A DNA stretch of 31,503 nucleotides from Deltaproteobacteria bacterium (GTDB lineage: Bacteria; SAR324; NAC60-12): contig JAYOTF010000039.1 of assembly GCA_038150265.1 (NCBI GenBank), positions 1 to 31,503 of the forward strand, read 5' to 3'. A model generated the notes under the pieces. The model was not told the origin of the DNA. It did not search any database and worked only from the letters and a program-made list of their open reading frames with translations. Positions 588 to 31,478 of the stretch are shown piece by piece. Both the position numbers and the translations under genes were made by a program. The stretch's first letter is position 1. Each line of letters opens with the position of its first letter.

Positions 588-1610
588 TCAGTTGACTGAG
601 ACGGTCCAGTCGCCGAGGGTGACTGAGGTCAGGTCAGGACCCGTTGGGCCAAGGGTCCAGGTCAGGTGTTCAGGAAGGGGAGCGACAGGTGGCAGGCCAA
701 GGAGTGCCTTGGGCTGGGTGGAGGCCCAGCTGACGGCTTCTTCAAGAGGGACCTCAAACCAGTTCACCACGTTCCGGACGCACGCGGAAAGGGTAATCGC
801 GGAGCCAGCGGGGCTGGAGGTTCCGGGCAGCACCACTTTCGGTGCTTCCAGGCGTTCGATGGCAACCGGTCCCAGGCGGTAGAGCCCCGGAGGCGCAGCA
901 CATCCGGCCGTCCCATCTGTTACCAAAATGGTCCGAGCCGATTGCTTGGCCCGGAGGTAGATGCCCAACACCGACGCCGGAATGTGAAAGCCGTCGGCAA
1001 TGAAGCTGGCCTGAAGGCCGTCTTCCGCGAGCTGATGGAAGACCGGGTTGCCGGACTTCTGGAGCAGCTGCACGGTTCCGTTTCCGAGGTGAGTGGAGAG
1101 GGTTGCGCCCGCGGCTGTGGCTTCGCGGACCTGCTCCAGGCTTGGGTTGCAGTGTCCGAGCGCCACCGTGACGCCCTGCTCCCGCCACTTTGGAATCAGG
1201 GCCATCACCCCAGGTTGTTCGGGCGCCACCGTGATCAGGCGGATGCGCCCCCCGGCCGCCTCCTGCAGGCGCTCAAAGTGGTCCCATGTGGCCGGGGTCA
1301 TGTGTTCTGCCGGGTGCACCCCCCGGTAGCCTTCTTCCGGATTGAGGAAGGGGCCTTCGAGGTGGTAGCCGGGCACCATCGCCTGAGCCAACGGGGACGC
1401 GGCGCGGGCGGCCTCCAGGGCACGCAGGCAGGCGGCCTGGTGCAGCTCACTGCTGGTAATCACCGTCGGCAGGCACCCCGTCACCCCAGTCTGCAGCATC
1501 ACCTGCAGAGACGCCTCAAACGCGTCAGGCGTGAGCGCGGCATCGTTGTAATCGACCCCGGCAAAGCCATTGACCTGGAGGTCGAAGAGCCCCGGCGTGG
1601 AGACCGTCAC
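588..1610 (-). CDS. nagA: N-acetylglucosamine-6-phosphate deacetylase (amidohydrolase family)
   Basis: Motifs DLQVNG, HLEGPF..GVHP, ITVAPE, LGH, THLGNG, IADGFH and LVTD. GTGA overlap with the upstream GFA gene. Confidence 0.85.
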   Translation of the reverse strand: MTVSTPGLFDLQVNGFAGVDYNDAALTPDAFEASLQVMLQTGVTGCLPTVITSSELHQAACLRALEAARAASPLAQAMVPGYHLEGPFLNPEEGYRGVHPAEHMTPATWDHFERLQEAAGGRIRLITVAPEQPGVMALIPKWREQGVTVALGHCNPSLEQVREATAAGATLSTHLGNGTVQLLQKSGNPVFHQLAEDGLQASFIADGFHIPASVLGIYLRAKQSARTILVTDGTAGCAAPPGLYRLGPVAIERLEAPKVVLPGTSSPAGSAITLSACVRNVVNWFEVPLEEAVSWASTQPKALLGLPPVAPLPEHLTWTLGPTGPDLTSVTLGDWTVSVN

Positions 1611-2017
1611 TGCTTCCCCCTCTCAAACTGAGCCGTCTCCGGATCCAGCGGTGTGCAGGAAAAGGCTCGGGAGGTCCAGACGTTGAACTGCGGCTTGAGC
1701 CACTCCGGATCCTCCAGAGAGCCGGCATAGACCGAGACCACGCCCTCGCGTCGGGAGTTGCTGCCAAAGAGCAAGGAGCCGCAGTCGGGACAAAAGGCCT
1801 TCGTCATCTGGCTGCCGCTGTCTGCCACATGCTCAAAACGCTTCGGTGTTCCGGAAAGCAGCTCAAACTGAGCCTCCTTGAAAAACGCGATGGTCGCATA
1901 ACTCGCTCCCGTGGCTCGCTTGCAGTCGCTGCAGTGACAGTTTCCCTGCATGGCTGGCTCGCCGGTGACCTGAAACGTGATGGTGCCACACAGGCACTGT
2001 CCCTGAGTTTTCGTCAT
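1607..2017 (-). CDS. GFA/CENP-V family zinc-binding protein
   Basis: GQCLCG...CHCSDC...FCPDCGS cysteine pattern. ATG at 2017 is preceded by a GGAGA RBS (the ORF track starts at 2035). Confidence 0.9.
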   Translation of the reverse strand: MTKTQGQCLCGTITFQVTGEPAMQGNCHCSDCKRATGASYATIAFFKEAQFELLSGTPKRFEHVADSGSQMTKAFCPDCGSLLFGSNSRREGVVSVYAGSLEDPEWLKPQFNVWTSRAFSCTPLDPETAQFERGKQ

Positions 2018-2068
2018 GGTTGCTTCTCCAGTCAAGGTGACGGCCCCTGTGGGCCAGAATGCATTGGC

Positions 2069-2839
2069 TCAAGGCCAGTTGTAATCAATGATCAGCGGGG
2101 CATGGTCTGAAAACCGGGGCTCGCGATGAATGGACTCCGCCACCGCCTGCGCAGCAATTCCGGGGGTTGCGATCTGGTAGTCGATGCGCCACCCGACGTT
2201 CTTGGCCCACGCCTGCCCGCGGTTCGACCACCAGGTAAACTGGTCCGGATGCGGGTTGAGCTGGCGGAACACGTCCACCCAGCCCAGCTCGTCAAAGAGC
2301 CTGGTCAGCCAGGCCCGCTCCTCTGGCAGAAACCCGGAGTTTTTCTGGTTGCCCTTCCAGTTCTTGAGGTCCACCTCCTGGTGCGCAATGTTCCAGTCCC
2401 CACAGATGATGCACTCCCGCCCTGTCTTCTGGAACTCCACCATCCACTGCTCCAGGCGGTCCATGGTTTCGTACTTGAACTGCTGCCGTTCGTCCTTGCT
2501 GGTTCCGGAGGGCAGGTAGAGGGAGACCACGCTCAGGTTCCCCCAATCGGCTCGGAGGAACCGCCCCTCGGCATCAAAGGCGTCCCAGCCCAGGCCCGTT
2601 TGCCACGCATCCGGGGCCTGACGCGTCAGGAGCGACACTCCGGAGTACCCGGGCTTTTCGGCAAAGTGAAACCGCCCCGTCAGCCCCCCGGGCGCCTGCA
2701 TGGCGTCGGTCAGCTGATGAGCCTGAATGCGGGTTTCCTGAAGGCAAAGGACGTCAGCCTGTTGCGCGTCCATCCACTCCAGGAAGCCCTTGCGCGTTGC
2801 CGCACGGAGTCCGTTGCAGTTGAGGGTGATGACCTTCAT
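2069..2839 (-). CDS. xth: Exodeoxyribonuclease III (AP endonuclease)
   Basis: Motifs LNCNGLR, LCLQET, GYSGV, YLPSG, CGDWNIAH, SGFLPEER, GWRIDY and SDHAP. Confidence 0.95.
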   Translation of the reverse strand: MKVITLNCNGLRAATRKGFLEWMDAQQADVLCLQETRIQAHQLTDAMQAPGGLTGRFHFAEKPGYSGVSLLTRQAPDAWQTGLGWDAFDAEGRFLRADWGNLSVVSLYLPSGTSKDERQQFKYETMDRLEQWMVEFQKTGRECIICGDWNIAHQEVDLKNWKGNQKNSGFLPEERAWLTRLFDELGWVDVFRQLNPHPDQFTWWSNRGQAWAKNVGWRIDYQIATPGIAAQAVAESIHREPRFSDHAPLIIDYNWP

Positions 2840-3534
2840 GAAAGGAGGGGGAGGGATTTTTTGAGGGTGGCCGTGAAGTTGAGGGAGACCAGGAACTTCT
2901 GGTTTTCGGCGAGGCCGGTGTAGCCCTTGAGGACCATCAGGCTCTTCTCGACCTTGGTGCCCGGGAAGCGCTTGATCGTCTGGATGATTTCCTCGCGGAT
3001 TTCTCCGCCCTTGAAGACGTGCAGGAGCGCCTCCGGTTTACGCAGGTTGGTGGTCCAGAACACCAGGTCCTCCAGCGGCGCGACGGCTCGGGCGGTGACC
3101 ACGTCAAAGCGCTGGCGCCAGGGCCGGACCTTTCCCAGCTCCTCGCCACGGCCCACCACGGTCTGAGCGTTCTTGAGCTGCAGGGCATCGATCATCTCCT
3201 GCACCACGGAAATCTTCTTCTGCCGAGAGTCCAGCAGCGTCACCCGCAGGTCCGGACGCGCAATTGCCAGCAGCAGCCCGGGCAGGCCGCCTCCGGTTCC
3301 GAAGTCACACAGGTCCGCCCCTTCCGGAAGGTCCCGCAGCGCCACCAGGGCCAGGCAGGGCAGGGCATGGCGCTCCCACAGCAGGTGCGCCTCCTTGCGG
3401 GAGATCAGGTTGACCTTGTGGTTGATCTCCTGAATCAGGGTCGCCCACTGTTCCAGCAGGGCCCACTGCGGGTCAGCAATGGCAAAACCGTTTCGGTCCA
3501 GTACCTGCCGGACCTCATCAGGAGTCAGGCCCAC
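2836..3534 (-). CDS. rsmG: 16S rRNA m7G527 methyltransferase
   Basis: NLIS, ERH, SAM motif DFGTGGGLPG, LLDSRQKK, GRGEE, FDVVTARAVA and FKG. ATGA overlap with xth. Confidence 0.92.
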   Translation of the reverse strand: MGLTPDEVRQVLDRNGFAIADPQWALLEQWATLIQEINHKVNLISRKEAHLLWERHALPCLALVALRDLPEGADLCDFGTGGGLPGLLLAIARPDLRVTLLDSRQKKISVVQEMIDALQLKNAQTVVGRGEELGKVRPWRQRFDVVTARAVAPLEDLVFWTTNLRKPEALLHVFKGGEIREEIIQTIKRFPGTKVEKSLMVLKGYTGLAENQKFLVSLNFTATLKKSLPLLS

Positions 3535-5003: not shown

Positions 5004-5450
5004 TCAAGCGTTACGAAAAACATAGTTGGTCCGGCTCTCGGCACAGAGCACCCCGTCCTGATTCGTCAGGGTGTTGTCGGAGATGACAAACTCCAGGGCG
5101 CCGTTCTTCTTGTCAAAGATCTCCGTCAGCGTCTTGACGAAGGTGATTTCGTCTCCGGCACAGATGGGCTGGTGGTAGGTGTAGCTTTGCTCGGCATGCA
5201 GGAGGCGCTTCAGGTCCTGCCCCAGCGCCTCACAGAAGGCCCGGAGGTCCAGGGCATCGGCCTCCAGCATGAACGGAAAGGTCGGCGGCGCCGGCAGGTT
5301 CCGGTATCCGGCGGCCTGAGCCACGGCCACATCGGTGTAAACCGGATCCGTCTGCCCCAACGCCTTGGCAACAAAGCGGAGCCGCCCGGCTTCCACCGGA
5401 AGCACAACCGGGTCAAAGCGGTGTCCTATGAGGTTCTTGTCAATCATCAT
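5004..5450 (-). CDS. MaoC dehydratase N-terminal-type hotdog subunit (HadA-like partner)
   Basis: Motifs VEAGRLRF, DPVY..A...GY..LPAPPTF and LLHAEQSYTYH. Likely start is ATG 5450 or 5447 (ORF track gives 5477). Confidence 0.88.
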   Translation of the reverse strand: MMIDKNLIGHRFDPVVLPVEAGRLRFVAKALGQTDPVYTDVAVAQAAGYRNLPAPPTFPFMLEADALDLRAFCEALGQDLKRLLHAEQSYTYHQPICAGDEITFVKTLTEIFDKKNGALEFVISDNTLTNQDGVLCAESRTNYVFRNA

Positions 5451-5696
5451 GCACTCAGTTGAAGCATCCGGAAGCACACGGGGCCTCCCAGATGGGTTGC
5501 TGCCTCAAGCCACCGGTCCAGGGGGCTCAGGCAAAAGAGGCTTAGCGTACACCGGTTTCCGGGGATGGTCCAGTTGCTTCCGGACGGAACGGCACGTTGG
5601 AGGATCCTCGGCGTTGAGCTTTGTGGGCGCCTTCACTAAGCTGAAGAGGAAACCCGTTTGCTGCCGGCCTCTTTCGCAGGCCCGACCTTCTCCCTC

Positions 5697-6440
5697 ATGA
5701 GCCCCATGCCGCTGACCCCTCCGTCTGACTGTGATGACACGTCCATCTGGAATTTTGCCATCGGCTCCAACCTGCATCCGGAGAAGCGACAGGGCCGGGC
5801 CAACCTCTGCATCGATGAGGTCGTCCCCGGAAAGTTGCAGGGCTGGCGGCTCGCCTTCAACCTCAAGAGCATCCGCTGGCTGGAGCCCTCCATGGCCGGC
5901 ATTGAGCCTGAGCCCAACAGCACCGTCCACGGCGTCCTGCTCCGGTTTCGGCCAGAGGAGTTTCAGAAGCTCGTGCAGAGCGAGGGAGACGGGCACGCCT
6001 ACACGCTGGAGGAGGTGGAGGTCGAGGCCTATGATGGCCGCCGCTTTCCAGCCAAGGCCTTCCGCGCCCTGCCGCACCGGACGCTTCCGGAAGACGTCCC
6101 GCCGTCGCTGCGGTACCTGAACATCATCCGGGAAGGCGCCCGCCTCAGTCAGTTGGACCCGGCCTACATCCAGTGGCTGGACGCCTTGCCTCATACCGAA
6201 AAGCCTCCGTGGCTGTGCTGGATTTCCCGGACGCTCATCTCGACGGTGATGTGGGTTGGGCGGCTCGGGTGCCCCAAGTGCGGGTCGCTGCTGCTGCGGG
6301 CTCTGCGGTGGGTGGATGAGCTTCCGGAGCCCCTGCATCTGCTCCGGGTGCCCTGCAATGTGCTGCTGCTGGCGCCCGTGCTGCTGCTGGGCAGCCTTCA
6401 CAACCTGTTTCAGACCCTCCGGCCGCAGCGCGACTGCTGA
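5697..6440 (+). CDS. Gamma-glutamylcyclotransferase-like protein with hydrophobic C-terminal extension
   Basis: WNFAIGSNL (cf. YFAYGSNL), GWRLAF, VHGVL, LVQSEG (catalytic Glu position) and PSLRYLNII..GA. Start uncertain (5658, 5697 or 5706). Confidence 0.8.
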   Translation: MSPMPLTPPSDCDDTSIWNFAIGSNLHPEKRQGRANLCIDEVVPGKLQGWRLAFNLKSIRWLEPSMAGIEPEPNSTVHGVLLRFRPEEFQKLVQSEGDGHAYTLEEVEVEAYDGRRFPAKAFRALPHRTLPEDVPPSLRYLNIIREGARLSQLDPAYIQWLDALPHTEKPPWLCWISRTLISTVMWVGRLGCPKCGSLLLRALRWVDELPEPLHLLRVPCNVLLLAPVLLLGSLHNLFQTLRPQRDC

Positions 6441-9710: not shown

Positions 9711-10511
9711 TCAGAAGGCAATTTGGTTGGGACTGAACCGAACCCCAAACGAGTAGGTTGATTCAGGATAGGAATCTGGCAAGGCTGGCAAAAATTGCAA
9801 GCCATTCAGCATCTGTTCCACTGAGCGATCAAAACGCTGATTTCCGGAGGATTCGTCCAGGTGCCACCGGAGCACTTCGCCGCTTTTGCGGATCTCAAAG
9901 CGGGCAGTGGCCCGGAACCGTTGCTCCGCCTGGTGCAGGGGCACAACCCAGCGCTCTTCAAAAAACTGAGAGATGCGCATCCGGTAGATCTGGGCCTCCT
10001 GCTGACTGAGGCGCAGATCGACTTCCTGCTTTTCCTCCTCTTGCTTCTCAAGGTCCACCAGGTCCAGATCGGAAAAAAGCCCCTGAAGCGACTGAGCCAG
10101 CTCCGTTCCCGCTTGAGGCGCGGGCGCTGCCAATGGGCGTTGCCGGGGTGCCGTCACCTCTCCAAGAATGCTCTGCAGGCTGGGCGGAGCGGGGGCAGGT
10201 GCTGGCGGCGGCGGCTCCGGAGGGGGCTCCGGTTCAGGCTCGGGAACTTCCGGCGGCGGCGGGGCCTTTGGACGAGGAGCCGCGCCTGCCAGCAGCACCT
10301 GCGGGGTTTCATCGGGAAGCAAGAGGGGTTCCGTGCGCTCGCGTGCCGACTCCGGAACCAGCGAAAGGCCCATCACCTGCGGGCGCAGGGCAGCCGACGC
10401 GGGAGTGCCTCGCACCTGCAGCAGCCCATAGACCAAAGCGGCGTGGAGGCCAATGGACAGCACGGCAGCGCCTCCATACGGCACCATCTGTCGCCACGTC
10501 CGTTTCACCAC
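9711..10511 (-). CDS. TolA/TonB-family energy transducer
   Basis: TM anchor with SIGLH (SHLS-type), Pro/Glu-rich linker, and C-terminal domain Y..RI....W..P / SSGNQRFDRSV. Located upstream of tolB. Confidence 0.8.
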   Translation of the reverse strand: MVKRTWRQMVPYGGAAVLSIGLHAALVYGLLQVRGTPASAALRPQVMGLSLVPESARERTEPLLLPDETPQVLLAGAAPRPKAPPPPEVPEPEPEPPPEPPPPAPAPAPPSLQSILGEVTAPRQRPLAAPAPQAGTELAQSLQGLFSDLDLVDLEKQEEEKQEVDLRLSQQEAQIYRMRISQFFEERWVVPLHQAEQRFRATARFEIRKSGEVLRWHLDESSGNQRFDRSVEQMLNGLQFLPALPDSYPESTYSFGVRFSPNQIAF

Positions 10512-11329
10512 GAAAGCCGGGAGAAGAGGTTGTGGAAGAAGTAGTTCGGCTCCGGAAACAGCAAGCGGGCCCGCCGGTTCGACTCCCGGATGTGGACCTC
10601 TTCGTCAATGTTCAGCGGAATCTTGTTCTTGCCGTCCACAGACAGGTAGATCTCATGCTCACGCGTGTTGGCCCCCACCTTCAGGCGGATGCGCGAGTCT
10701 CCGGTCACCACGAGCTGCCGGGCCCGGAAGTCGTACTCGTTGAGGCCACTGACGATCATGCAGCGCAGCTCCGGCATGACGATTGGGGACCCTGCGGCCA
10801 GTAGGTAGGCGGTGCTGCCGGTTGCCGTCCCCACGATCACGCCGTCACCCCGGATCGTCCGGATGGGCTGATCGTTGATGTTCAGCTCCACCGTGATGAG
10901 GCGGGTGGCGCCCTTGACCACGATCTCGTTCACCGCAAACGTGGTCCCCTGCGGGTGAATGCACTCCAGCATGGACCGTTCGCTGATGATGTAACGTCCC
11001 TCCAGCAAGCAGGCCAGCACCTCCTTCAGCTCGTCCCGGTCGCCTGCTGTCAGAAACCCCACCGTCCCGTAGTTGATCGCCAGCACCGGGGGAGTGGGGT
11101 AATTCACCAGTGCCGACAGCACCGAGCCGTCTCCTCCGAAGACGATGTTCAGGTCCACCGGGGTCTCGGTTCCGCCACTCCATTCAAGGGGGATGACCTC
11201 AATCCCATGGGGCTGCGCCCACGCCTCCATGTGTGCCAGGAGTTCCGCTTTTTCAGGAGCATTGGTGAAGATGCCAAGGCGCTTCAGGCTCAAGGGAGAG
11301 GCGTCAGAGTGGGACACGAAGGAGTCCAT
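10505..11329 (-). CDS. nadK: NAD kinase
   Basis: Motifs GGDGS, INYGTVGFL, NE and GDGVIVGTATGSTAY. Confidence 0.93.
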   Translation of the reverse strand: MDSFVSHSDASPLSLKRLGIFTNAPEKAELLAHMEAWAQPHGIEVIPLEWSGGTETPVDLNIVFGGDGSVLSALVNYPTPPVLAINYGTVGFLTAGDRDELKEVLACLLEGRYIISERSMLECIHPQGTTFAVNEIVVKGATRLITVELNINDQPIRTIRGDGVIVGTATGSTAYLLAAGSPIVMPELRCMIVSGLNEYDFRARQLVVTGDSRIRLKVGANTREHEIYLSVDGKNKIPLNIDEEVHIRESNRRARLLFPEPNYFFHNLFSRLSW

Positions 11330-11459: not shown

Positions 11460-11574
11460 TTTGGGAAAACAGCAACTGTGCCGAACGCTCCGGATGCAGA
11501 ATCCGGGTTTCAGGAAATTTTCGGTCCCCCTGTGGCGCGGTGGCCTCTAACCTCTTTTTTGAAAACCCCACCCC

Positions 11575-13371: not shown

Positions 13372-13429
13372 TCAGCGTGAATGCGCTTACTTCCTTGCAC
13401 CCGACCGTTGTCGTTTCCGTAGTTACCCT

Positions 13430-22444: not shown

Positions 22445-25252
22445 GTGCTCGTGAATTCGACGACCTCGAGGGGCCTGTTTCTGCTAGCCCTCCTCTTCCT
22501 CCTCGTGTTGCCTCTGGACGGAATCGCGTCTTCACTGAAGACCGTTCCTTCCTACCGGATCCAGGTGGAATACGACCACGATCAGAAACGGCTTGAGGCT
22601 AAAATGCAAGTTCGTTTTCCGAGCGATTCTCCCCCAGCAAGCGAGCGGATTTTCCTCCTGCCCATGAACCGCTTCCGGAAGCCCGACTCCCGGGGCATCC
22701 GTCGGCACCGGCTCGTGCCCGTCTTTGCTCAAGACCGCTTCACCGACAACAACCAGGACCCCCTCTTCCCCACAGGATTCCACTCTGGAGGAACCCTCAT
22801 CCAGGCCGTCCGGAATGCCCAGGGCCAGGCCCTGCCCTTTGAACTGACGGCCAACCCTCAGGTGGAAATCGGCTACTCCCCTCAAGAAGGGCTCCTGCAC
22901 GTGTTTCCAGCTTCCGGACACACGACCGTGGACGCAGAGCTGGAGATTGAGTTCACCACCCTCTTTCCGGAACGCCTGATGGAAGGCGTGGTCCGCGATC
23001 AGCTGATGGCGTCTCTCTGGTACCCCCTGGTTCCTCCACGAGAAGGCGCCACGGAGGTCCGGACCCTCGACTTGCTGCAGCCGGCTCACTACTCCGTCAC
23101 CTGGACCTCTCGGCAACCCGGGCGCCTGATCCTTCCCGACCAGGACCAGAGCCTCCTTCATGGGGAAACCCTCGACTCCGCTCCCGATCAGCTGCTGCTT
23201 CGGTTTCCCGTGGTGTTTTCTCCACAACTCAAACCCGCGTGGGTGGAAGAAGACACCTCTCAGCGGCCTCGGCTGACCTTTCAGGTCCGGCAGGGAGAAG
23301 CTCACCGGACCCGGCTCCTCGCCGAGACCGTCCGCTCCTTCCTGGCGTTCTGTGAAGAGCGTTACCAACTCAAGCTTCCCTGGGACACCCTCCACCTGAT
23401 TGAAACACCCGCCTCCTTTGAAGAGGTCCGGGTGTACGGAAACCTCGTCCTCATTCCCACCGCAAACCTCCAGCGCTCCGCCTTTCTCGACCGGCGGGCG
23501 GTTTCCTTTCTGACCCGTGCCCTCGGGCAGCTCTGGTTTGGAGAGTGGCTTCAGGCCGATACCAACCGGGACCTCTGGCTCCGACTGGGCTTCCCGGCCT
23601 TTCTCGGGCTCCGCTACTTTGAGGACCGCTACGGCACCGATGCGACGATCTTCGACTTCTGGGACTGGCTCAACCCACGCTACCGGGAGCATTTCTACGA
23701 GCTCCCCGTCCGCAGCATCCGGAACGAGCTGCTCCGCCCCATCGCCACCGCATTCCGGAGTGCTCCGGCGTCTCAAGACTTCCTCCGGATTGTGACCTAC
23801 AAGACCGCGTTGGTGCTCTCCATGCTTGAGTCCGTCCAGGGGCCTTCTCACTTTCAGGAGGGGCTGCACCGTCTGCAGGTGGAGCCCTCTCGTGTGCAGA
23901 CGCTTCCGCAGCTGGAAGCCGCCTTAACGCCTCCGGGAGAGGATTGGCACTGGTTCTTTGAGCAGTGGTTCCGAACGAACCGGACGCTTGACTACGCGCT
24001 GGGGGAGGTGGCGGTGGAGGAGCTTGCTGACGGACGCTTCCGGACCGATGTGGAAGTCCGGCGCCTGGGCACCGGGCGCATGCCCATCGACGTTCAGCTC
24101 TACCTCGCTTCCAACGAGCAGCAACGGCGGCGCCTCTCCGGACGTCCTGCCCATGAGTCGATCTCGTTCTACAGCAACACCGCGCCAGACTGGGTCTCGC
24201 TGGATCCCGATGAAACCCTGCTGGAGGAATCGCGCATCAACAACCACTCCCGGAACTTCCTGCGTGTTCGGTTTGCCTTTGACTGGAAGAAGCAGCGCGA
24301 GCAGCTCATTGCCCTCATCCCCGGCATCTCCAGCAATGCCATTGACGGCAACTCCCTTGGCATCGGCATCCGCCAGCGATTTGACAACAACGAGCTGGTC
24401 CTGGCTCCGGGTTACGGTTCCCGGAACCACCGGTTCATCTACCTGGCCCAGTTCACCCGCAAGCACTGGCTCACAGAAGGTGGGGAGCTGTTTCTCAACG
24501 CCTCCGAGTATGCCGGCATCCGCTCGCAAGGCGTGGGAGTGGGGTACAAGTCTCCGGGATACGAGGATCAGATCAACCATGAAGTCCACCTGAACCTCCA
24601 GCAGGAGCTCCTTCTGCAGGTGCAGGAAGGCGCCGAGAGCGTCCCGGAAGAAACCGGAAACCTGAGCACCCTGCAAGTGAGCTATACCGGCACCTGGAGG
24701 CGCCCGTCTCTGCTGGAGCTGGAAGGGGAAGGCCTGTACGAGCAGACCCTGGCCGGCGCACAATCCGACTTCGACTACCGGATCTGGCGCGGGCAGCTGC
24801 TGCAGAGCTGGACCCTCGGGTTTCAGGTGGAATTCTGGCTGCAGGGCATCCGGGGCACGACTGATGGGGTCACGCCACTCCAGAAAAAATTTCAGCTCGG
24901 CTCTCCGGAAGTGCTGCGTGGTTATCCACAGACGACGGAGCTCCGAGACGACGAACTGCAGGCGTGGCGGGGGGACTTTCGGTTTCCACTCACATTGAAA
25001 ACGTGGTGGGCGGACGTCAGCGCCTATGACGTCCAGGGCATTCTTTTTTATGATCAGGGAAAAATCTGGGCCCGCGACGAGTCTCCGGCAGGGCGCCCCC
25101 TCCGGCAAAACATTGGCGTTGGGATTGAGTGGATGCTGGACACGGTTTCGCTGTTTCAGGTGCCGCTGAAGCTCGAACTCGCGGTGCCGATTCACGATGA
25201 CGAGTACCAGCGTCCGCAGCTCGTTCTCCTCGGTACCCTCACGGGGAGCTAG
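22445..25252 (+). CDS. Exported M1-aminopeptidase-like protein with degenerate zinc site, fused to an Omp85-like beta-barrel
   Basis: Signal peptide. M1 scaffold motifs WYP, QLWFG, WL..GF, YKTALVLSML, WFFEQW and DPD..L.E....NN. C-terminal amphipathic strands with LGSPEVLRGY, FYDQGKIW, IGVGI and LKLELAVPI. Confidence 0.72.
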   Translation: MLVNSTTSRGLFLLALLFLLVLPLDGIASSLKTVPSYRIQVEYDHDQKRLEAKMQVRFPSDSPPASERIFLLPMNRFRKPDSRGIRRHRLVPVFAQDRFTDNNQDPLFPTGFHSGGTLIQAVRNAQGQALPFELTANPQVEIGYSPQEGLLHVFPASGHTTVDAELEIEFTTLFPERLMEGVVRDQLMASLWYPLVPPREGATEVRTLDLLQPAHYSVTWTSRQPGRLILPDQDQSLLHGETLDSAPDQLLLRFPVVFSPQLKPAWVEEDTSQRPRLTFQVRQGEAHRTRLLAETVRSFLAFCEERYQLKLPWDTLHLIETPASFEEVRVYGNLVLIPTANLQRSAFLDRRAVSFLTRALGQLWFGEWLQADTNRDLWLRLGFPAFLGLRYFEDRYGTDATIFDFWDWLNPRYREHFYELPVRSIRNELLRPIATAFRSAPASQDFLRIVTYKTALVLSMLESVQGPSHFQEGLHRLQVEPSRVQTLPQLEAALTPPGEDWHWFFEQWFRTNRTLDYALGEVAVEELADGRFRTDVEVRRLGTGRMPIDVQLYLASNEQQRRRLSGRPAHESISFYSNTAPDWVSLDPDETLLEESRINNHSRNFLRVRFAFDWKKQREQLIALIPGISSNAIDGNSLGIGIRQRFDNNELVLAPGYGSRNHRFIYLAQFTRKHWLTEGGELFLNASEYAGIRSQGVGVGYKSPGYEDQINHEVHLNLQQELLLQVQEGAESVPEETGNLSTLQVSYTGTWRRPSLLELEGEGLYEQTLAGAQSDFDYRIWRGQLLQSWTLGFQVEFWLQGIRGTTDGVTPLQKKFQLGSPEVLRGYPQTTELRDDELQAWRGDFRFPLTLKTWWADVSAYDVQGILFYDQGKIWARDESPAGRPLRQNIGVGIEWMLDTVSLFQVPLKLELAVPIHDDEYQRPQLVLLGTLTGS

Positions 25253-25652
25253 GACGCAGCTGCAGGCGCCGGGTGGCGTGGTGCACCGTCACCGTCTCAG
25301 CGGTCAGGCGCTCCACTTCCCAGCCAGCCACCACGTCTCCCTCTTGCACCCACCGAGGCAGTCCCGCTTGCTGCAGCAGCGCGTATGCCCCTTCGTTGGT
25401 TTTCAGAATTGCCTGCACGGTGAAGGGGACCTCTGGAGGAGGAGCGCTCGGCAGAGGTGGCGCTTCTGGCGATAACGACGATGGAGGCGGGGGAGAAGGG
25501 GCCGGGGGCTTCGGGGGGTCCGGAGGTGGATCGGGAGCCACCACAGGCGGGGGTGCCGCGGGAAGGAGGGAGCGAAACGGATTACCGGGCTCCGCAACCA
25601 CAGTGCTGGCAATCAGCACGCCGAGCCCTCCCCCAATCACCTCAAGGCGCAT
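25239..25652 (-). CDS. PilP/GspC-like proline-rich exported protein
   Basis: Short hydrophobic N-terminus, NPF motif, poly-Pro linker and beta-domain YALL....WVQEGD...WEVERL...VTV. Overlaps the upstream pilO-like gene. Confidence 0.55.
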   Translation of the reverse strand: MRLEVIGGGLGVLIASTVVAEPGNPFRSLLPAAPPPVVAPDPPPDPPKPPAPSPPPPSSLSPEAPPLPSAPPPEVPFTVQAILKTNEGAYALLQQAGLPRWVQEGDVVAGWEVERLTAETVTVHHATRRLQLRPSSP

Positions 25653-26169
25653 CTGGAGGAAGCTCCAGGAGGCTCAGGGTCACGTCCATCTGCAGGGCCG
25701 GATTCTGTTCCTGAGGCTTGGGGTTCTGAAGGTGCAACGCCTTGATCGGCATGCCCGGAGGCTTCTGCCAGTCTTGCCAGACCTGCTGCAACGCCAGCCA
25801 ATTCCCGGAAAGCTTCAAGGACAGCTCACGTTCCCGGAGCCCCTCTTGCTCCTGCACGGGTCCCTGCTTTTGCTCCAGGAGGGTCACGTCGCCCTTGTTG
25901 AGCGCTCGGACGAGGCGATACTGCGTTTCGGTCGAGTTCCAGTGGTGTTCCTGAAGCACCGGTCGCGCTTCTGGCACTGCAGGGGGAGCCTCCAGCAGCG
26001 GCAGTTGGGCCAGTGCCGCTTGTGCCGTCTGCAGCTGCTGCTGACGCTGAGCCTTGGCCTTGATCCGCGGTTGCAGCACCTGCCACTCCAGCAGCACGCC
26101 TCCGGCCACCAGCAGGAGCAGGATGCCCAGCAGGCGGAAGTGCCTCCCGGCCTCAGCCCCCGGACTCAT
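25642..26169 (-). CDS. PilO/GspM-like inner-membrane protein
   Basis: One TM helix, short coiled coil, and ferredoxin-like C-terminus (LSLKLSGNW..L.....I..L.L...LQMDVTL). Confidence 0.5.
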   Translation of the reverse strand: MSPGAEAGRHFRLLGILLLLVAGGVLLEWQVLQPRIKAKAQRQQQLQTAQAALAQLPLLEAPPAVPEARPVLQEHHWNSTETQYRLVRALNKGDVTLLEQKQGPVQEQEGLRERELSLKLSGNWLALQQVWQDWQKPPGMPIKALHLQNPKPQEQNPALQMDVTLSLLELPPDAP

Positions 26170-27167
26170 GCGCCCTCAGGCCGGTTGCTCAGCCGCGTTT
26201 TCCAGAACACCAGCACCACCAGAACCAGCGCGGCCAGCACCACCAGCGTCACCACCACATAGACCTGAGGCTGCACCGCAATGCCACGGACAGTCAACTC
26301 TGCAGCGGTTGAGGTGCCAGCCTTGCCCTTCCAGACGCGAAACTGCGTGCCCCCCATCGACTGCTCACCCGTGTACTCCAGCTGGTCGGACTGAATCGTC
26401 AGCTCGTCCAGGGACGTGAAGGCACTCAGCAGCTCCAGGGAGTGCTTCACGGGTCGCACAACGGTTGCCTGACCAAAGAAGGCCGGCAGCTGGTACTGGT
26501 AGAGCACCTGCATCCCTCCGGGGGGAAAGAGGCGGGTGATGGAAAGCTCATTGCCAGAGAGCCGGTAATCGGTTCCTTCCTGAGCCTCCAGCATCCGGAA
26601 GTTCTCGAATCCGTCCGGAAGCTCCACCGTCAGGGGTTTTTCCGAGGTGTCAATCCGGTCCTTGGTGGCGTTGCTGATGCTCAAGACCTCGGTCATCTGC
26701 AGCAGCCCAATGCCGCCTTCAAAGACGAGGGAGGTTTGCTCAATGTCCAGCTTCTCGGTGTCAGTCGAGGTGGTCGGAGGCTCAATGTTCACCTGAAAGG
26801 TCACCCGATCAGGAGACATGAAGAACAGTTCCGAGCTGATGAGCTCCCCATTCACCCGGGACCCCAGCCGGTACGCGGCTCGCATTTCACGCGGAACCTG
26901 CTCAAAGCGGAAGTTCCCCTGGGCATCGCTCTTGATCCGGGCGACGGGCCCGGTGGTGTTGACGTTGCCCTGGGCATCGACGACAAACTTCAGCAGCACC
27001 ACATCCAGTCCCTCGGGGGGAATGGCGCTGGCGTCTGCCTGCACCTGTCCTTCCACATTCACGGTGGGAGAGGCCGCGGGCCCCTGTTGCGGAGCGGGCA
27101 GTTCCTGAGCCGAGAGGAAGGCGCCAGAGAGCAACAGCAGCAGGCCTGTTCCTAAAGCTTTCATCAT
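26166..27167 (-). CDS. Exported beta-rich hypothetical protein with C-terminal membrane anchor
   Basis: Signal peptide, prealbumin/carboxypeptidase-regulatory-like N-domain (SDAQGNFRFE), second beta domain (EVLSISN..LTVELPDG), and C-terminal TM followed by KTR. Start at 27167, 27164 or 27179. Confidence 0.7.
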   Translation of the reverse strand: MMKALGTGLLLLLSGAFLSAQELPAPQQGPAASPTVNVEGQVQADASAIPPEGLDVVLLKFVVDAQGNVNTTGPVARIKSDAQGNFRFEQVPREMRAAYRLGSRVNGELISSELFFMSPDRVTFQVNIEPPTTSTDTEKLDIEQTSLVFEGGIGLLQMTEVLSISNATKDRIDTSEKPLTVELPDGFENFRMLEAQEGTDYRLSGNELSITRLFPPGGMQVLYQYQLPAFFGQATVVRPVKHSLELLSAFTSLDELTIQSDQLEYTGEQSMGGTQFRVWKGKAGTSTAAELTVRGIAVQPQVYVVVTLVVLAALVLVVLVFWKTRLSNRPEGA

Positions 27168-27504
27168 GTTCGGGTTCAATGGAGTCAGAGGGTGTCAAAA
27201 GTCGACCAAACGTCAACAGCCGTTTCGGAGCCGGGGCGTCTTCCGGATGGCGAATGAAGATGGTCCTCTAGCATGAACGGAATCGGAGCCCGTTCAAAGA
27301 CGAAATTTGTCTCAGCTCCACGGTTGCTCACCCGTCCCTTCCGGAAGCGTCTGCCGACACACGGGTCGTGCTTGTTCGCTCCCGGGCATTCGAGTATGCT
27401 GGAACCTGCACCCTGGCTGTCCGTTCAGGGAAGTCGTCTCTTTCAGGCTCCGGATGCTGAATCCGGCGCGCCTTCCTTTTGCCTTCAGACCCAAATACGC
27501 CACC

Positions 27505-29265
27505 ATGCCCACGCTGCTTCCTGATTCGACCCTGGCCTCCCTGGGGCTCGACGCCTTTCTCTTGAGCACTGCTGACGAGCACCTGAACGAGTACACGCCC
27601 CTCCACAACCGACGGCTGGAAGCGGCCACCGGGTTCTCCGGGTCGGCCGGGACGGTCATCTTTGTGCACCAGGGCACGCCACAGCTGTTTGTGGACTCTC
27701 GCTACCACGTTCAAGCCGACCAGCAGTGTGCGGAGAGCTTCCGGGTGCAGAAGCTCGGCAACGAGGGGGTTCCGGAACCACACGAGTGGCTGGCGCAGCA
27801 GCAAGGCGCCTGGAAGATCGGGGTGGATCCGTTCCTGATGAGCCCACGCGCCTGGAAGCGTGTGGAAGCCGCTCTGGCGGCAACCCCGCACCAGCTGGTG
27901 CCCATCACGCCCAACCCCGTGGATGCCCTCTGGCTCGACCGTCCGGCTCCTGCGAAAAGCCGCCCTTACGCCCTGCCGCTGGAATGGACCGGAGTCTCTG
28001 CCGAAGACAAGCTCGCTCAGGTCCGGAACGCCCTGCAGCAGCAGCAGGCGGAGGTGCTGCTCCTGACGATGCTGGATGAGATCGCCTGGCTCCTGAACCT
28101 CCGGGGGAGTGATGTGACCCACACGCCGGTGTTTGAGGCGTATGCCGCCGTTTTTGCCGAGCAGGCCATCTGCTTCTGCCATCACCCTGAGGAAATGCCG
28201 GTGTGTCCGGGCTGGGAGTTCCGGCCTTATGACGACTACTTCCCGTTCCTCAAGACCCTGACGGAGTTGAAACAGGTCTGGCTCGACCCATCCGGAGTGA
28301 CCGTGGGGACCCAGCAGGCGTTCCGGAAGGACCAGCTGCTCGCACGCGAGAGCCCGGTGGTGCTGCCCCGCGCCCTGAAGAACCCGGCAGAGCTGGCCTG
28401 CATCCGGACGGCCCACCAGCGAGCGGCCTGTGCCCTGGTCCGTAGCTTCGCCTGGCTTGAACGCTCCCTTGCCGCAGGAGAGGCCCTGAGCGAGAAGGCC
28501 TTTGCCGACCACCTCTACGACCAGTATGCTCAGGAAGAAGGCTTCACCGACCTCAGCTTTGGCACCATCGCTGGCGCCGGCAGCAACGGGGCCATCGTTC
28601 ACTACGGCACCCCAAGTGCCGACAAGGCACTCGTTCCGGAAGAGATGCTGCTCGTGGACTCTGGCATCCAGTGCGCTGGCGGCACCACCGACTGCACCCG
28701 GACCGTTTCCCTGGGCACGCCCTCGGACGCCCAGCGACACGCCTACACGCGAGTCCTGCAGGCCCACCTGCGGCTGGGGCATCAGGTCTTTCCGGAAGGC
28801 ACCAACGGCACACAGCTGGATGCGGTGGTCCGCTCCGGGCTCTGGAATGACGGCATGGACTTCGGGCACGGCACCGGACACGGCGTTGGCGCCTTCCTCG
28901 GCGTCCACGAGGGGCCGCAGCGCATTGCCCCACAGTCTCATGAGGTCGCCTTTCAGGAAGGCATGGTCGTTTCCAACGAGCCCGGGTTCTACCGTTCCGG
29001 ATGGGGCGGCATCCGCATTGAAAACCTCTGTGCCGTCACCGGCGTCTCGCAAGCAGGCTTCCCGGCTCACCCGGGCGGACGACGCTGGTTGAGCCTTGAA
29101 ACCCTGACCCTGGTGCCCTACGACCGGCGGCTCATTGCTCCCGAGTTGCTCAGCCCTGACGAACAGCGCTGGCTGGAAGCCTACCACCAGCGCGTCTACG
29201 CGGAAATCCACCCCTTCCTCAACTCTGAGGACCAGGAGTGGCTCCGGCAGGCCTGTGGCGTCTGA
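27505..29265 (+). CDS. Aminopeptidase P (Xaa-Pro aminopeptidase, M24B, long form)
   Basis: DEHLNEY, TGFSGSAG, DSRY, IAWLLNLRGSD; metal ligands DSG, GTTD, HGTGHGVG, HEGP, SNEPG and IRIEN. Likely ATG at 27505 (ORF track gives 27307). Confidence 0.93.
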   Translation: MPTLLPDSTLASLGLDAFLLSTADEHLNEYTPLHNRRLEAATGFSGSAGTVIFVHQGTPQLFVDSRYHVQADQQCAESFRVQKLGNEGVPEPHEWLAQQQGAWKIGVDPFLMSPRAWKRVEAALAATPHQLVPITPNPVDALWLDRPAPAKSRPYALPLEWTGVSAEDKLAQVRNALQQQQAEVLLLTMLDEIAWLLNLRGSDVTHTPVFEAYAAVFAEQAICFCHHPEEMPVCPGWEFRPYDDYFPFLKTLTELKQVWLDPSGVTVGTQQAFRKDQLLARESPVVLPRALKNPAELACIRTAHQRAACALVRSFAWLERSLAAGEALSEKAFADHLYDQYAQEEGFTDLSFGTIAGAGSNGAIVHYGTPSADKALVPEEMLLVDSGIQCAGGTTDCTRTVSLGTPSDAQRHAYTRVLQAHLRLGHQVFPEGTNGTQLDAVVRSGLWNDGMDFGHGTGHGVGAFLGVHEGPQRIAPQSHEVAFQEGMVVSNEPGFYRSGWGGIRIENLCAVTGVSQAGFPAHPGGRRWLSLETLTLVPYDRRLIAPELLSPDEQRWLEAYHQRVYAEIHPFLNSEDQEWLRQACGV

Positions 29266-30823: not shown

Positions 30824-30946
30824 GTTGGCCTCGGAAACATGGCTTGATTCTGGGGACCTCTGCTGATAGGTTCAGCGGTTGTTCCCGGAACCTTAATGGA
30901 GACGCCCGCTCTCACGAACAGCAGGGCGCCTCTGGAACTTCAAAAC

Positions 30947-30966
30947 TGATATAATTGACGAAGGAG
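30947..30966 (+). promoter_or_regulatory. Extended -10 element and RBS of fliL
   Basis: TG-A-TATAAT (30947-30955), AAGGAG (30961-30966), ATG at 30972. Confidence 0.55.
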
Positions 30967-30971
30967 ATCGC

Positions 30972-31478
30972 ATGGCGGAAGAAGAAGGCGGCGGCGGCGG
31001 CGGCGGCGGTGGTAAGAAGAAGCTGATCATCATCATCGTTGCCGTTGTCCTGCTTCTGGTCATTGCCATCGTGGCGTTTCTCCTCCTTTCCGGTGGAGAT
31101 GAGGAGGCCGCATTACCTGAGGAAGAAAAACCTGTGGCCGTCGAGGCGGAGCCTCTGGCAGCGCCGATCTTCCTATCGTTAGACAGCTTTGTGGTCAACC
31201 TCAAAGACGGACGCCGGTACCTCAAGACCTCGATGCAGCTCATGATGAGCGATCCGGCCGCGAGTGCCTACCTGACCACCCGTCTGGTTGAGGTGAAGGA
31301 CGTCGTCCTGACCGAGCTCCAGGAGCTTTCGGCCGAGGATGTCAGCCAGGCTTCGGCTCGCGAAGCCCTGAAGCAACGCCTGATTACCTCAATCAGCAAA
31401 CTCTTCCCTCCCAAACCGGAATGGGAGGATCCGGAACCCATCAAGAAGGTTCTCTTTGAGGAGTTCGTCATCCAGTGA
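30972..31478 (+). CDS. fliL: Flagellar basal body-associated protein FliL
   Basis: KKKLIIII TM anchor, FVVNL...RYLK, VKD, LK..L..I and IKKVLFEEFVIQ C-terminus. Confidence 0.9.
   Translation: MAEEEGGGGGGGGGKKKLIIIIVAVVLLLVIAIVAFLLLSGGDEEAALPEEEKPVAVEAEPLAAPIFLSLDSFVVNLKDGRRYLKTSMQLMMSDPAASAYLTTRLVEVKDVVLTELQELSAEDVSQASAREALKQRLITSISKLFPPKPEWEDPEPIKKVLFEEFVIQ
30987..31013 (+). repeat. (GGC)7(GGT)2 triplet repeat encoding Gly9 in the FliL N-terminus
   Basis: Read directly from the sequence. Confidence 0.9.

Follow-up and report, generated by a model that had tools for sequence, protein, structure and literature searches.

We show here that the 6-bp palindrome TCCGGA is hyperabundant in this SAR324 genome and that the excess is independent of coding. 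The copies are phased at 10.5 bp, conditional on the encoded protein, and evenly spaced; they turn over between relatives and follow a clade distribution. A weak genome-wide pressure at the DNA level, acting through a putative TCCGGA-specific protein and maintaining a phased, HIP1-like array, is the explanation that we tentatively favor, while regarding it as somewhat short of an even prospect.

TCCGGA tops all other hexamers of the genome

An exact count found 92 copies of TCCGGA in the window, by which we mean the whole stretch of 31,503 nucleotides that was analyzed, the first at position 773 and the last at 31430 to 31435. Dinucleotide-preserving shuffles of the window (n = 100) contained a mean of 11.12 copies (standard deviation, 3.20), at most 20, and none came up to the observed number. 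A preliminary description of this DNA had put the number at about 90, roughly 1 per 350 bp, with 10 to 11 expected by chance. These estimates agree with the count, with the genome-wide density of 1 per 349 bp (9711 copies in 3,393,712 bases, or 3.39 Mb), and with the shuffles (11.1 ± 3.2 versus 92), and all 14 positions that it listed hold the word.

The gene list for the window comprises 30 open reading frames (ORFs), 20 supported by Pfam and 10 from ORF scoring, and all gene-based figures in this work refer to genes called by crude ORF scoring. The array spans a housekeeping region with, among others, the genes for RsmG, an MFS transporter, a TolB-like protein, NAD kinase, FtsH, CdaA, YbbR, PdxJ, RNase G, PurO, a GltS-like protein, Ppx/GppA, an M24 peptidase, a GHMP kinase, and an SLT domain protein. 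Within the window, 44 copies read xxT-CCG-GAx, 30 read xTC-CGG-Axx, 14 read TCC-GGA, and 4 are intergenic (5579, 11489, 25519, and 27242). The array and the copies discussed individually are as follows.

773-31435, unstranded: TCCGGA array of 92 copies, mean spacing ~340 bp (exact count, shuffles, and Pfam)
5579-5584, unstranded: intergenic TCCGGA between ORFs 5004-5477 (minus strand) and 5658-6440 (plus strand)
11489-11494, unstranded: intergenic TCCGGA in the divergent promoter region between the NAD kinase gene (10505-11329, minus strand) and ftsH (11575-13371, plus strand)
11710-11715, plus strand: TCC-GGA (Ser-Gly) in ftsH, frame example
12474-12479, plus strand: xxT-CCG-GAx (CGT-CCG-GAC, Arg-Pro-Asp) in ftsH, frame example
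13848-13853, plus strand: xTC-CGG-Axx (CTC-CGG-AAC, Leu-Arg-Asn) in cdaA, frame example
25519-25524, unstranded: TCCGGA outside the gene list, of uncertain coding status, with competing ORFs 25239-25652 (minus strand) and 25273-26262 (plus strand)
27242-27247, unstranded: intergenic TCCGGA between ORF 26166-27179 (minus strand) and the M24 peptidase gene (27307-29265, plus strand)
28291-28327, unstranded: TCCGGA pair three helical turns apart (28291/28322, d = 31, from coordinates) in the M24 peptidase gene

The preliminary description had claimed occurrence in all three codon frames, and its examples at 11710, 12474, and 13848 are exact; those that it gave as noncoding (5579, 11489, and 27242) are indeed intergenic. 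Its remark that the word forces T-ending codons against the GC3 bias is borne out, for example, by the CGT-CCG-GAC at 12474 in ftsH.

Genome-wide, the observed/expected (O/E) ratio of TCCGGA was 8.67 to 8.69 under a Markov model of order 0, 7.57 at order 1, 3.95 at order 2, 2.39 at order 3, and 1.22 at order 4. The last value is near 1 because 54% of all TCCGG in the genome is part of TCCGGA, so that the null absorbs the signal and becomes circular. TCCGGA is by far the top hexamer and is followed by hexamers that overlap it (O/E, 4.88); among palindromes, CTGCAG ranks second (O/E, 3.16). Near-matches, described earlier as abundant, are raised, but only mildly, with other NCCGGN words at 2.26 or below. 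In the flanks of TCCGGA, a mild sequence preference is limited to the three positions on either side (-3 to -1 and +1 to +3), with background composition farther out. A dispersed repeat of the REP or MITE kind, in which conservation extends past the core, does not fit these flanks.

The excess is independent of coding

To separate the word from the proteins that it encodes, we used a synonymous shuffle that preserves both protein and codon usage (n = 20). The genome contains 8181 coding copies, compared with 1936 ± 31 in the shuffles (4.2-fold), and the excess was present in every frame (4.24-, 3.42-, and 6.17-fold). Ser-Gly pairs were written TCC-GGA in 1918 of 5625 cases genome-wide, with 453 expected; xxT-CCG-GAx occurred 4029 times and xTC-CGG-Axx 2234 times, with 653 expected for each. 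The dependence crosses codon boundaries. In Pro-[DE] pairs genome-wide, CCG was used in 78.7% of cases after a T-ending codon versus 46.8% otherwise, and xTC was followed by CGG in 53.5% of cases when the next codon began with A versus 31.3% otherwise.

Among positions where the protein permits the word, 8179 of 19572 (41.8%) hold it, versus 9.9% in the shuffles, an odds ratio of ~6.5. In strict intergenic DNA (689 segments), TCCGGA has an order-0 O/E of 7.85 and is the top nonhomopolymer hexamer; a single strength thus fits both compartments. Occupancy per gene was uniform (chi2/df = 0.98 across 1723 genes) and was unrelated to GC3 and to codon bias. The earlier proposal of a DNA-level process that makes or keeps TCCGGA regardless of coding is upheld by the synonymous shuffle, the cross-codon dependence, and the equally strong intergenic excess. 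Neither of the two outcomes that had been named as refuting it, an O/E of about 1 under a dicodon-preserving or higher-order Markov null and an excess confined to one frame, was found. Depletion in acquired islands, also raised earlier, was not seen among the scored genes, a weak test in that genes with atypical codon usage were excluded.

TCCGGA copies are helically phased and evenly spaced

The genome-wide spectrum of distances between TCCGGA pairs peaks at 10.5 bp, with preferred distances of ~9 to 10, 20, 31, 41 to 42, 52, and 62 to 63 bp. Within the window, two further pairs lie near whole turns (23754/23784, d = 30; 26594/26614, d = 20). When occupancy was computed given an occupied neighbor, the power was 0.793, versus 0.028 ± 0.017 (maximum, 0.070) in 30 class-preserving shuffles, and the permissive positions themselves are unphased (power, 0.023). 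The period is 10.47 to 10.53 bp (10.50), and phasing is detectable to ~540 bp. Power over noise was 63.5 for TCCGGA. None of 14 control hexamers exceeded 7.7, and comparable phasing was not found among them (CCCGGA, TCTGGA, and CCGGAA included). No WW/SS periodicity at 10.5 bp was present around the sites (standard deviation, 0.003 to 0.004; top periods, 19.5 and 12.8 bp).

At distances of 11 to 17 bp, the occupancy ratio falls to 0.20 to 0.48, a footprint-like exclusion. Spacing is more even than expected, with a gap coefficient of variation of 0.984 versus 1.023 ± 0.009 and 4.8% versus 5.6% of gaps longer than 1000 bp (z = -4.7). In-phase and out-of-phase pairs number 129 and 52 in this genome (G000), 67 and 39 in G002, 36 and 7 in G005, and 29 and 7 in G012. 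The congeneric G001 is enriched 7.7-fold yet avoids in-phase distances (22 versus 57), with a period of ~10.9 bp, which a simple model of binding to the same helix face does not predict.

The word is clade specific and its sites turn over

TCCGGA is enriched in several SAR324 genera with sampled GC contents of 42 to 61%, and the persistence of the excess in relatives sampled at 41.6 to 60.1% GC further supports a process at the DNA level. In other SAR324 lineages the word is nearly purged (no copy in 88 kb of G083; O/E, 0.17 in G017). Since a type II-like 6-bp palindrome is purged in these other lineages, proteins specific for TCCGGA probably circulate in the phylum.

Sites turn over between relatives. 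Within the genus, the probability of finding the word opposite an occupied site was 0.539, versus 0.196 opposite an unoccupied one, at a 4-fold-site identity of 0.50. At the family level, positional conservation was not seen: the odds ratio was 1.06 in the comparison with G005 and 1.76 in that with G012, falling to 0.58 and 0.87, respectively, for the commonest frame. Selection on individual sites is thus not seen at that level, and the same lack of conservation would also be expected from continual neutral replenishment, for example by biased repair. The amino acid context is not protected at occupied sites (19.5% versus 19.0% lost in G002).

Methyltransferase, repair, and reader genes

The assembly of this genome is 97.8% complete, in 87 contigs. 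Profile searches for a C5 methyltransferase (PF00145) and Vsr (PF03852) gave 0 matches in these 87 contigs, which does not prove absence, and tblastn with the C5 methyltransferase and Vsr proteins of relatives gave nothing below an E value of 0.3. Vsr was not found in G001 or G002 either. The Dcm-Vsr pairs of relatives are mostly ~21 to 29% identical to each other (62% between G009 and G011) and do not track enrichment.

The search for a methyltransferase and Vsr that the preliminary description had recommended did yield two SPPY-type DNA methyltransferases (C51:248-1387 and C45:2844-3620), neither of which tracks enrichment cleanly. The first, an orphan, is a candidate of the kind that had been suggested. 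Families f1 and f2 inherit it vertically, and the five strongly enriched genomes that entered its tree group together there. However, it is also present in nonenriched genera (7 of 9 genomes of genus g2, plus G006 and G010), its motif IV is degenerate in two enriched genomes (RPPL in G005 and APPA in G004), and it was not found in the moderately enriched G011. SeqA (PF03925) and MutH (PF02976) gave 0 matches in this assembly, and a reader protein was not found; like the failure of the orphan methyltransferase to track the trait, this weighs against the explanation that we favor. The preliminary description had also suggested a site for a nucleoid or uptake protein, and the protein-site part gains from the helical phasing, which it had not seen. 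Overall, its interpretation is partly supported.

A proposed explanation and its alternatives

In the explanation that we favor, the pressure would act on the whole 6-bp word, multiplying its odds by ~e^2 alike at synonymous and intergenic positions, and would maintain a population of sites, fixed in density, evenly spaced, and in phase with the helix, rather than particular sites. A putative, probably dimeric, sequence-specific protein would read the palindrome and contact neighboring copies that lie on the same helix face, and synonymous and noncoding positions would drift toward an in-phase array. The logic would be that of GATC with Dam and SeqA, in which a mark is needed every few hundred base pairs; a 6-mer could supply such a density only if enriched ~8-fold. 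We infer that TCCGGA is read by a protein and that the pressure reflects selection on the array instead of a bias of repair. More speculatively, the conserved orphan SPPY-type methyltransferase (G000:C51:248-1387) might write a methyl mark on the word.

A bolder reading, which we consider unlikely, is that TCCGGA is the address word of a new bacterial chromosome organization, a protein lattice on ~10,000 copies per genome along one helix face. If true, phase coherence would extend over ~50 turns, the system would be clade specific within SAR324, and two species of one genus (G000 and G001) would follow opposite phase rules. Sister lineages would purge TCCGGA with restriction enzymes, so that the word would double as a mark of lineage identity.

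The alternative that survives best, although still doubtful, is that a site-specific enzyme biases mismatch repair or gene conversion toward the TCCGGA strand, with the word accumulating as a neutral by-product. The enzyme could be a Vsr-like nuclease or, as in Elhai's ratchet, a methyltransferase that works together with a methyl-directed nicking enzyme; its footprint and cooperativity would account for the phasing and for the exclusion at short range. Consistent with this are the turnover of sites without positional conservation at the family level, the equal strength in coding and noncoding DNA and uniformity over genes irrespective of codon bias, the unprotected amino acid context, and the presence of two DNA methyltransferases. 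The more-even-than-random spacing is what a saturating ratchet predicts (PMC4390886). However, C5 methyltransferase, Vsr, and MutH were not found in this 97.8% complete genome. As described in the same source (PMC4390886), Elhai's ratchet requires G-meC in the word; TCCGGA has no GC dinucleotide, so the rule cannot apply as written. Among G000/G002 one-off variants, there was no C-to-T excess at either C (56 of 957 at the inner C and 19 of 370 at the outer C, versus 100 of 957 T-C exchanges at positions 1 and 6), and the deamination neighbor TCTGGA/TCCAGA is raised, not depleted (O/E of TCT-GGA, 1.62). Extra assumptions would be needed to explain why phase coherence extends to ~540 bp and why it is reversed in G001.

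It is improbable that TCCGGA is instead an uptake signal favored by the competence apparatus, with molecular drive (biased uptake plus recombination) building up the copies. The genome does encode ComEC (C42:23128-23949) and DprA (C1:105307-105921), but these genes are near-universal and were found in 10 and 11 of 14 control genomes, respectively. Like DUS of Neisseria and USS of Pasteurellaceae, which number thousands of copies inside and outside genes, TCCGGA is dense, fairly evenly spaced, and present in all frames and intergenic DNA; it turns over, its lineage-specific distribution resembles their dialects, and accumulation by drive is possible without benefit to single sites. Known uptake signals are, however, 9 to 12 bp long and not palindromic, and a 6-mer enriched 8-fold discriminates poorly. 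TCCGGA is also phased, to 540 bp, and we know of no uptake signal with helical phasing between sites. A receptor for the word was not found in this genome.

Slighter still is the chance that intrinsic DNA mechanics are responsible, with phased TCCGGA as a bend or twist element shaping supercoiling or compaction without a dedicated reader. The 10.50-bp period matches the repeat of relaxed B-DNA, and the coherence is long range. Against this stand the lack of WW/SS periodicity around the sites, the lack of comparable phasing in control hexamers, the flipped sign in G001, and two traits typical of protein recognition, namely the strict need for all six letters (other NCCGGN words reach at most 2.26-fold) and the palindromic form.

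That the excess simply follows from GC content or from the usage of codons, dicodons, or peptides has a negligible probability. The order-4 ratio of only 1.22 and the placement of about half of the coding copies in one frame (xxT-CCG-GAx) might speak for this reading, but it is already refuted by the synonymous shuffle (exceeded 4.2-fold overall and 3.4- to 6.2-fold per frame), the dependence across codon pairs, the same excess in 689 strict intergenic segments, the enrichment kept at 41.6% GC in G012 (order-0 O/E, 7.0), and the circularity of the order-4 null.

Comparison with known systems

In Escherichia coli, GATC, the word of Dam, SeqA, and MutH, is a palindromic methylation word that occurs every few hundred base pairs, and SeqA needs two GATC sites on the same helical face. 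An array of TCCGGA would follow the same logic of density and phase. In contrast, SeqA and MutH were not found here, and GATC, as a 4-mer, needs no enrichment. In the Dcm-Vsr system, very-short-patch repair is coupled to a methyltransferase and alters the frequencies of CCWGG-related words genome-wide; this genome, by comparison, has no detected C5 methyltransferase or Vsr, and the deamination neighbor is not depleted. With restriction-site avoidance, TCCGGA shares the form of a 6-bp type II palindrome, which other SAR324 lineages avoid classically, but the sign is opposite in this genome, with an 8.7-fold excess rather than depletion.

The closest likeness is to HIP1, and the analogy drawn in the preliminary description is apt. 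Both are short GC-rich palindromes, each the most over-represented word of its genome with about one copy per few hundred base pairs, in excess at the DNA level in all frames and in noncoding DNA; both are lineage specific, with related lineages lacking the word, and a methyltransferase is suspected as partner. Elhai 2015 does not mention TCCGGA, which also occurs 0 times in the accessible text of Xu et al. 2018. It is a different word, of 6 bp, without a GC dinucleotide and in the phylum SAR324. Elhai 2015 describes a methyltransferase specific for the HIP word or its core as encoded in the genome; the candidates here are the two SPPY-type enzymes. The fold excess of TCCGGA is lower (8.7-fold, versus 15- to 300-fold for HIP1 according to PMC5861425). 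Selection on individual HIP1 sites has been argued from their conservation between genomes relative to controls (Xu et al. 2018), whereas conservation of TCCGGA fades to nothing at the family level. Finally, the periodicity reported for HIP1 is at 10 to 90 kb, and that of TCCGGA is at 10.5 bp.

TCCGGA is over-represented in the window and across the genome

The preliminary description counted by eye about 90 copies of the palindrome TCCGGA in the window, and an exact count gave 92, from position 773 to position 31435. In 100 dinucleotide-preserving shuffles of the window, the word occurred 11.12 ± 3.20 times (maximum, 20), and none of the 100 reached 92. The window is the entire contig C39 of a draft genome of 87 contigs and 3,393,712 bases (61.2% GC; estimated completeness, 97.8%), and ordinary housekeeping genes fill it. 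Among named records, its RNase G locus is nearest to those of MAGs labeled Proteobacteria bacterium (73%) and SAR324 cluster bacterium (68%). The window also carries the gene for PurO, an archaeal-type IMP cyclohydrolase (PF07826; 17573-18238, + strand), and a CdaA-YbbR pair for c-di-AMP synthesis (13304-15255, + strand); the same genome has TolB-, TPR-, and Omp85-like envelope genes. An Rfam search of the window gave no match.

When all hexamers were counted genome-wide, the check that the preliminary description had proposed, TCCGGA was present in 9711 copies, one per 349 bp, or 8.69 times the zero-order expectation. The next-ranked hexamers, CCGGAA/TTCCGG (4.88x), overlap TCCGGA, and the second palindrome, CTGCAG, reaches 3.16x. 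Because all other NCCGGN words stay at or below 2.26x, the unit is the six-letter TCCGGA; at its flanks, a pyrimidine is mildly preferred at position -1 and nothing more, and TTCCGGAA has 1129 sites in the genome. Under Markov models, the observed/expected ratio was 8.67 (order 0), 7.57 (order 1), 3.95 (order 2), 2.39 (order 3), and 1.22 (order 4), the last value being circular because TCCGGA contains 54% of all TCCGG. At the other extreme, CTAG-containing words are very rare in this genome (CCTAGG, 38 copies; ACTAGT, 12; TCTAGA, 27; 0.03 to 0.06 of the zero-order expectation), as are several AT-rich palindromes.

The excess is independent of coding and uniform along the genome

Genes were defined as ORFs scored by an iterated codon model rather than by a standard gene caller, which limits all gene-based, phase, and turnover figures; 2635 ORFs covered 85% of the genome, and the 2346 with a score of >25 were used. 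The occurrence of the word in all three reading frames, first noticed in the window, holds genome-wide (1918 TCC-GGA, 2234 xTC-CGG-Axx, and 4029 xxT-CCG-GAx), with respective excesses of 4.24x, 3.42x, and 6.17x over the expectation from the proteins and independent codon choice. Against a protein-preserving null of 20 within-gene synonymous codon shuffles, there were 8181 coding copies versus 1936 ± 31. At permissive positions, where the encoded protein allows TCCGGA, the word was present in 41.8% of 19,572 cases versus 9.9% in shuffles (odds ratio, ~6.5). The combination CTT-CCG was chosen in 684 of 1240 occurrences of Leu-Pro-[Asp/Glu], with 52 expected. Usage of xTC-CGG was 53.5% before a codon starting with A and 31.3% otherwise, and the share of CCG among Pro codons that precede Asp/Glu was 78.7% where the codon before ended in T and 46.8% where it did not. 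Both usages shift with the neighboring codon, a dependence that extends across codon pairs. The excess cannot be attributed to codon or peptide usage.

The excess suspected in noncoding DNA was also borne out: 689 short spacers between high-scoring genes (92,178 bases) held 208 copies, 7.85 times the zero-order expectation, with values of 7.1 for divergent, 7.9 for co-directional, and 11.0 for convergent spacers. The coding odds ratio of ~6.5 is near this noncoding value, and therefore a single pressure of ~e^2 acting on the entire word would fit both compartments.

Per-gene occupancy showed no over-dispersion (chi2/df, 0.98, for 1723 genes with at least five permissive sites) and neither GC3 (rho, -0.02) nor codon score (-0.04) correlated with it. 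In 10-kb bins, counts were near-Poisson (mean, 29.0; variance, 33.2), and the sole dip in density lay at start codons (~1.65/kb from -50 to +50, compared with ~2.7 to 3.0/kb elsewhere). The depletion in acquired islands that had been proposed did not appear, in that none of the 1723 scorable genes belonged to a low-occupancy island, a weak result given that atypical genes were pre-filtered.

Neighboring copies keep a helical phase

Distances between copies of TCCGGA peaked at ~9 to 10, 20, 31, 41 to 42, 52, 62 to 63, and 72 bp, and the 10.5-bp spectral peak of these distances was as high as the codon peak. To condition on protein sequence, we computed the occupancy of each permissive site given an occupied neighbor, normalized by class. 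The 3-bp signal was then gone, while the 10.5-bp signal remained, with a power of 0.793 versus 0.028 ± 0.017 (maximum, 0.070) in 30 within-class occupancy shuffles. The permissive positions themselves had a 10.5-bp power of 0.023. Because the conditioned power stays and the permissive positions are unphased, the phase lies in synonymous choices and not in protein periodicity. At 11 to 17 bp from a neighbor, occupancy fell to 0.20 to 0.48 of expectation. The period was 10.47 to 10.53 bp, and phasing was strongest below 117 bp and still 4 to 11 times noise out to ~540 bp; its power/noise ratio was 63.5, whereas none of 14 control hexamers exceeded 7.7. A nucleosome-like WW/SS periodicity around the sites was absent.

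Compared with 100 shuffles in which permissive sites were occupied at random, spacing was more even than random (coefficient of variation of gaps, 0.984 versus 1.023 ± 0.009), with fewer gaps of <30 bp (4.1% versus 6.4%) and of >1000 bp (4.8% versus 5.6%). The arrangement TCCGGA-NNN-TCCGGA (distance, 9) occurred 45 times, compared with 14 to 22 times for distances 6 to 8 and 10 and 3 to 12 times for distances 11 to 17, which suggests that this composite is a favored double site.

Individual sites turn over

Proteins of the genome (2346 queries) were aligned to sampled stretches of the congener G002 and of two other SAR324 genomes, G012 and G005, taking the best hit per gene at a coverage of at least 60% and an identity of at least 60% (G002) or at least 45% (G012 and G005). 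This gave 287, 160, and 119 aligned genes, with 4-fold-site identities of 0.50, 0.24, and 0.34, for G002, G012, and G005, respectively. The retention of syntenic sites, another point raised in the preliminary description, was evident in G002, where 393 of 729 sites occupied in the genome under study carried the word (0.539) versus 205 of 1046 unoccupied ones (0.196), but faded beyond it: the site-sharing odds ratio was 1.76 in G012 and 1.06 in G005 and, in the commonest frame, 0.87 and 0.58. The TCC-GGA frame kept some correlation (3.96 and 2.26). Amino acid context was lost equally at occupied and unoccupied sites (19.5 and 19.0% in G002, 53.8 and 56.2% in G012, and 52.2 and 53.1% in G005). 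Because the odds ratios fade and context is equally lost, individual sites are not kept, while density and phase are.

Enrichment, avoidance, and phase vary among relatives

SAR324 is a marine phylum that is globally abundant and uncultured. Among 20 relatives counted, the congeners G001 and G002 had 8293 and 7726 copies, and G005 and G012 had 4063 and 3922 copies compared with 483 and 377 of the reversed control word; others were at the control level, and three were depleted. Sampled GC content ran from 41.6% (G012; 7.0 times the zero-order expectation) through 53.4% (G005; 4.0) to 60.1% (G002, 6.8; G001, 7.7). In the G012 sample (stretches L121-L129 and L150-L169; 41.6% GC), CTGCAG stood at 6.7x beside TCCGGA at 7.0x; it was ~3.1 to 3.5x in the genome under study, G001, and G002, and its excess may be a codon effect, GCAGCA and CTGCTG being high too.

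We mapped TTCCGGAA against its reversed control in 88 SAR324 genomes. Genus g11 had a ratio of at least 9x in 15 of 18 genomes (maximum, 62x) and at most 1.9x in the other three, and genera g19, g4, and g1 reached 23 to 48x, 4 to 17x, and 3 to 11x. All nine genomes of genus g2 were near 1, and five genera of family f7 lay at 0.01 to 0.09. In the avoiding lineages (families f2 and f7), five genera had 3 to 30 copies of the TTCCGGA A-type octamer versus 228 to 333 of the reversed control. Genome G083 held no TCCGGA in 88 kb (L230-L239), and the observed/expected ratio in G017 (L240-L249) was 0.17. The near-absence of the palindrome from other SAR324 lineages has the classical look of restriction avoidance. 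AGGCCT was considered as an alternate iterated palindrome in the avoiding lineages and rejected, as it reached only 3.2x in the 88 kb of G083.

Phase also differed among the enriched genomes. Pairs at 41 to 43 versus 46 to 48 bp numbered 129 and 52 in the genome under study, 67 and 39 in G002, 36 and 7 in G005, and 29 and 7 in G012. In G001 the whole-genome counts were reversed, 22 and 57 (binomial P = 1e-4), despite its 7.7x enrichment. In an 800-kb sample of G001 (L190-L229), the period was ~10.9 bp, with minima where the genome under study has maxima, and its power was matched in 4 of 2000 Poisson simulations; in G001, the base just before the word (position -1) is preferentially C. Pair counts showed no phase preference in the SAR324 genomes G004, G007, and G011.

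Methyltransferase and repair gene candidates do not track the enrichment

Of the methyltransferase and Vsr-like repair gene suggested at the outset, C5 methyltransferase and Vsr had no match in family searches of the assembly, nor did N6_Mtase (PF02384), SeqA, or MutH, and tblastn with the Dcm and Vsr proteins of relatives found nothing. Vsr was not found in G001 or G002 either, and the C5 fragments of G002 and G012 are unrelated to the enzyme of G005. We therefore rejected a C5 methyltransferase with Vsr as the cause, neither having been found here and the pairs of relatives being mostly mutually unrelated and not tracking enrichment; the type I/III-like N6_Mtase was dropped because it was not found. 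A hypermutable methylated C was likewise rejected, as one-off variants between the genome under study and G002 showed no C-to-T excess at either C.

Two DNA methyltransferases are encoded in the genome, on contigs C45 and C51, and in both motif IV reads SPPY, as is typical of N4-cytosine enzymes. The best PDB match of one of them was a cytosine-N4 methyltransferase, at that motif only. Their loci are as follows.

L098:35-3159 (contig C45, outside the window): three-gene operon of a retron-type reverse transcriptase, an SPPY methyltransferase, and a 311-aa protein
L102:451-2643 (G002, contig C16) and contig C51:2-1387 of the genome under study (truncated by the contig end): C51-type orphan methyltransferase

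The reverse transcriptase matched PADLOC RT_XIII at 234 bits and NCBIfam retron St85 at 200 bits, below the cutoff of 235. The C45 methyltransferase (258 aa, beta-class) has a 4-base overlap with the preceding reverse transcriptase gene, and the 311-aa protein had no family match. The enzyme occurs in this genus alone, with 71% identity in G001 and as a fragment in G002, and so cannot explain enrichment in other genera.

The C51 type has no adjoining nuclease gene. Its N-terminal tail is ~330 aa with EDRPRR/YEDRSRR-like charged repeats in genus g1, G002 included, and shorter and K/E-rich in G012. Apart from the genome under study, 32 of 44 family f1 genomes and 15 of 19 family f2 genomes carry it, compared with 0 of 24 elsewhere, and the five strongly enriched genomes included in its tree group together (support, 80/87). 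However, 7 of 9 genomes of the non-enriched genus g2 carry it, it was not found in the enriched G011, and its motif IV is RPPL in G005 and APPA in G004, both enriched. In genus g11 it was found neither in three non-enriched genomes (51 to 57% complete) nor in three enriched ones. Its presence in genera without enrichment, together with the degenerate catalytic motif of two enriched genomes, G005 and G004, led us to reject it as a presence/absence determinant.

Possible explanations and comparison with HIP1

What these facts require is a pressure at the DNA level that is ongoing and uniform, acts on the palindrome as a whole, and also registers where neighboring copies sit on the helix. A putative TCCGGA-specific protein would be the root cause. 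Our tentative preference is for weak selection that favors having the sites of such a protein arrayed in phase, which leaves the phase reversal of G001 unaccounted for. Bias in repair or conversion, directed by the putative protein, is a possible but doubtful second choice; the turnover of sites and their uniformity do not separate it from array selection. Compared with either, a DNA uptake signal and protein-free DNA mechanics are improbable.

The contrasts among genomes should allow the responsible gene to be tracked down by phylogenetic profiling: genera with 20 to 60x TTCCGGAA, congeners at no more than ~2x control, one inverted-phase congener, and TCCGGA-avoiding sister families. The methylation question is answerable from long-read metagenomes. 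The word also distorts codon usage and k-mer signatures, imposing codons that end in T or A on a GC-rich genome. This distortion has a bearing on binning, codon bias studies, and inference of horizontal transfer in the SAR324 phylum.

In the library searched, no paper combined TCCGGA and SAR324, and among the papers retrieved none was on bacterial over-representation of TCCGGA, other matches being primers or unrelated; Elhai (2015) does not mention the word. TCCGGA is an independent case of a highly iterated palindrome, in a phylum unrelated to the cyanobacteria in which HIP1 was described. Its protein-independent 10.5-bp phase, equal coding and noncoding strength, site turnover, and natural contrast set are features without report in the HIP1 papers. 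HIP1, as reported by Xu et al., differs from TCCGGA in this genome, whose density and phase persist while the sites turn over.
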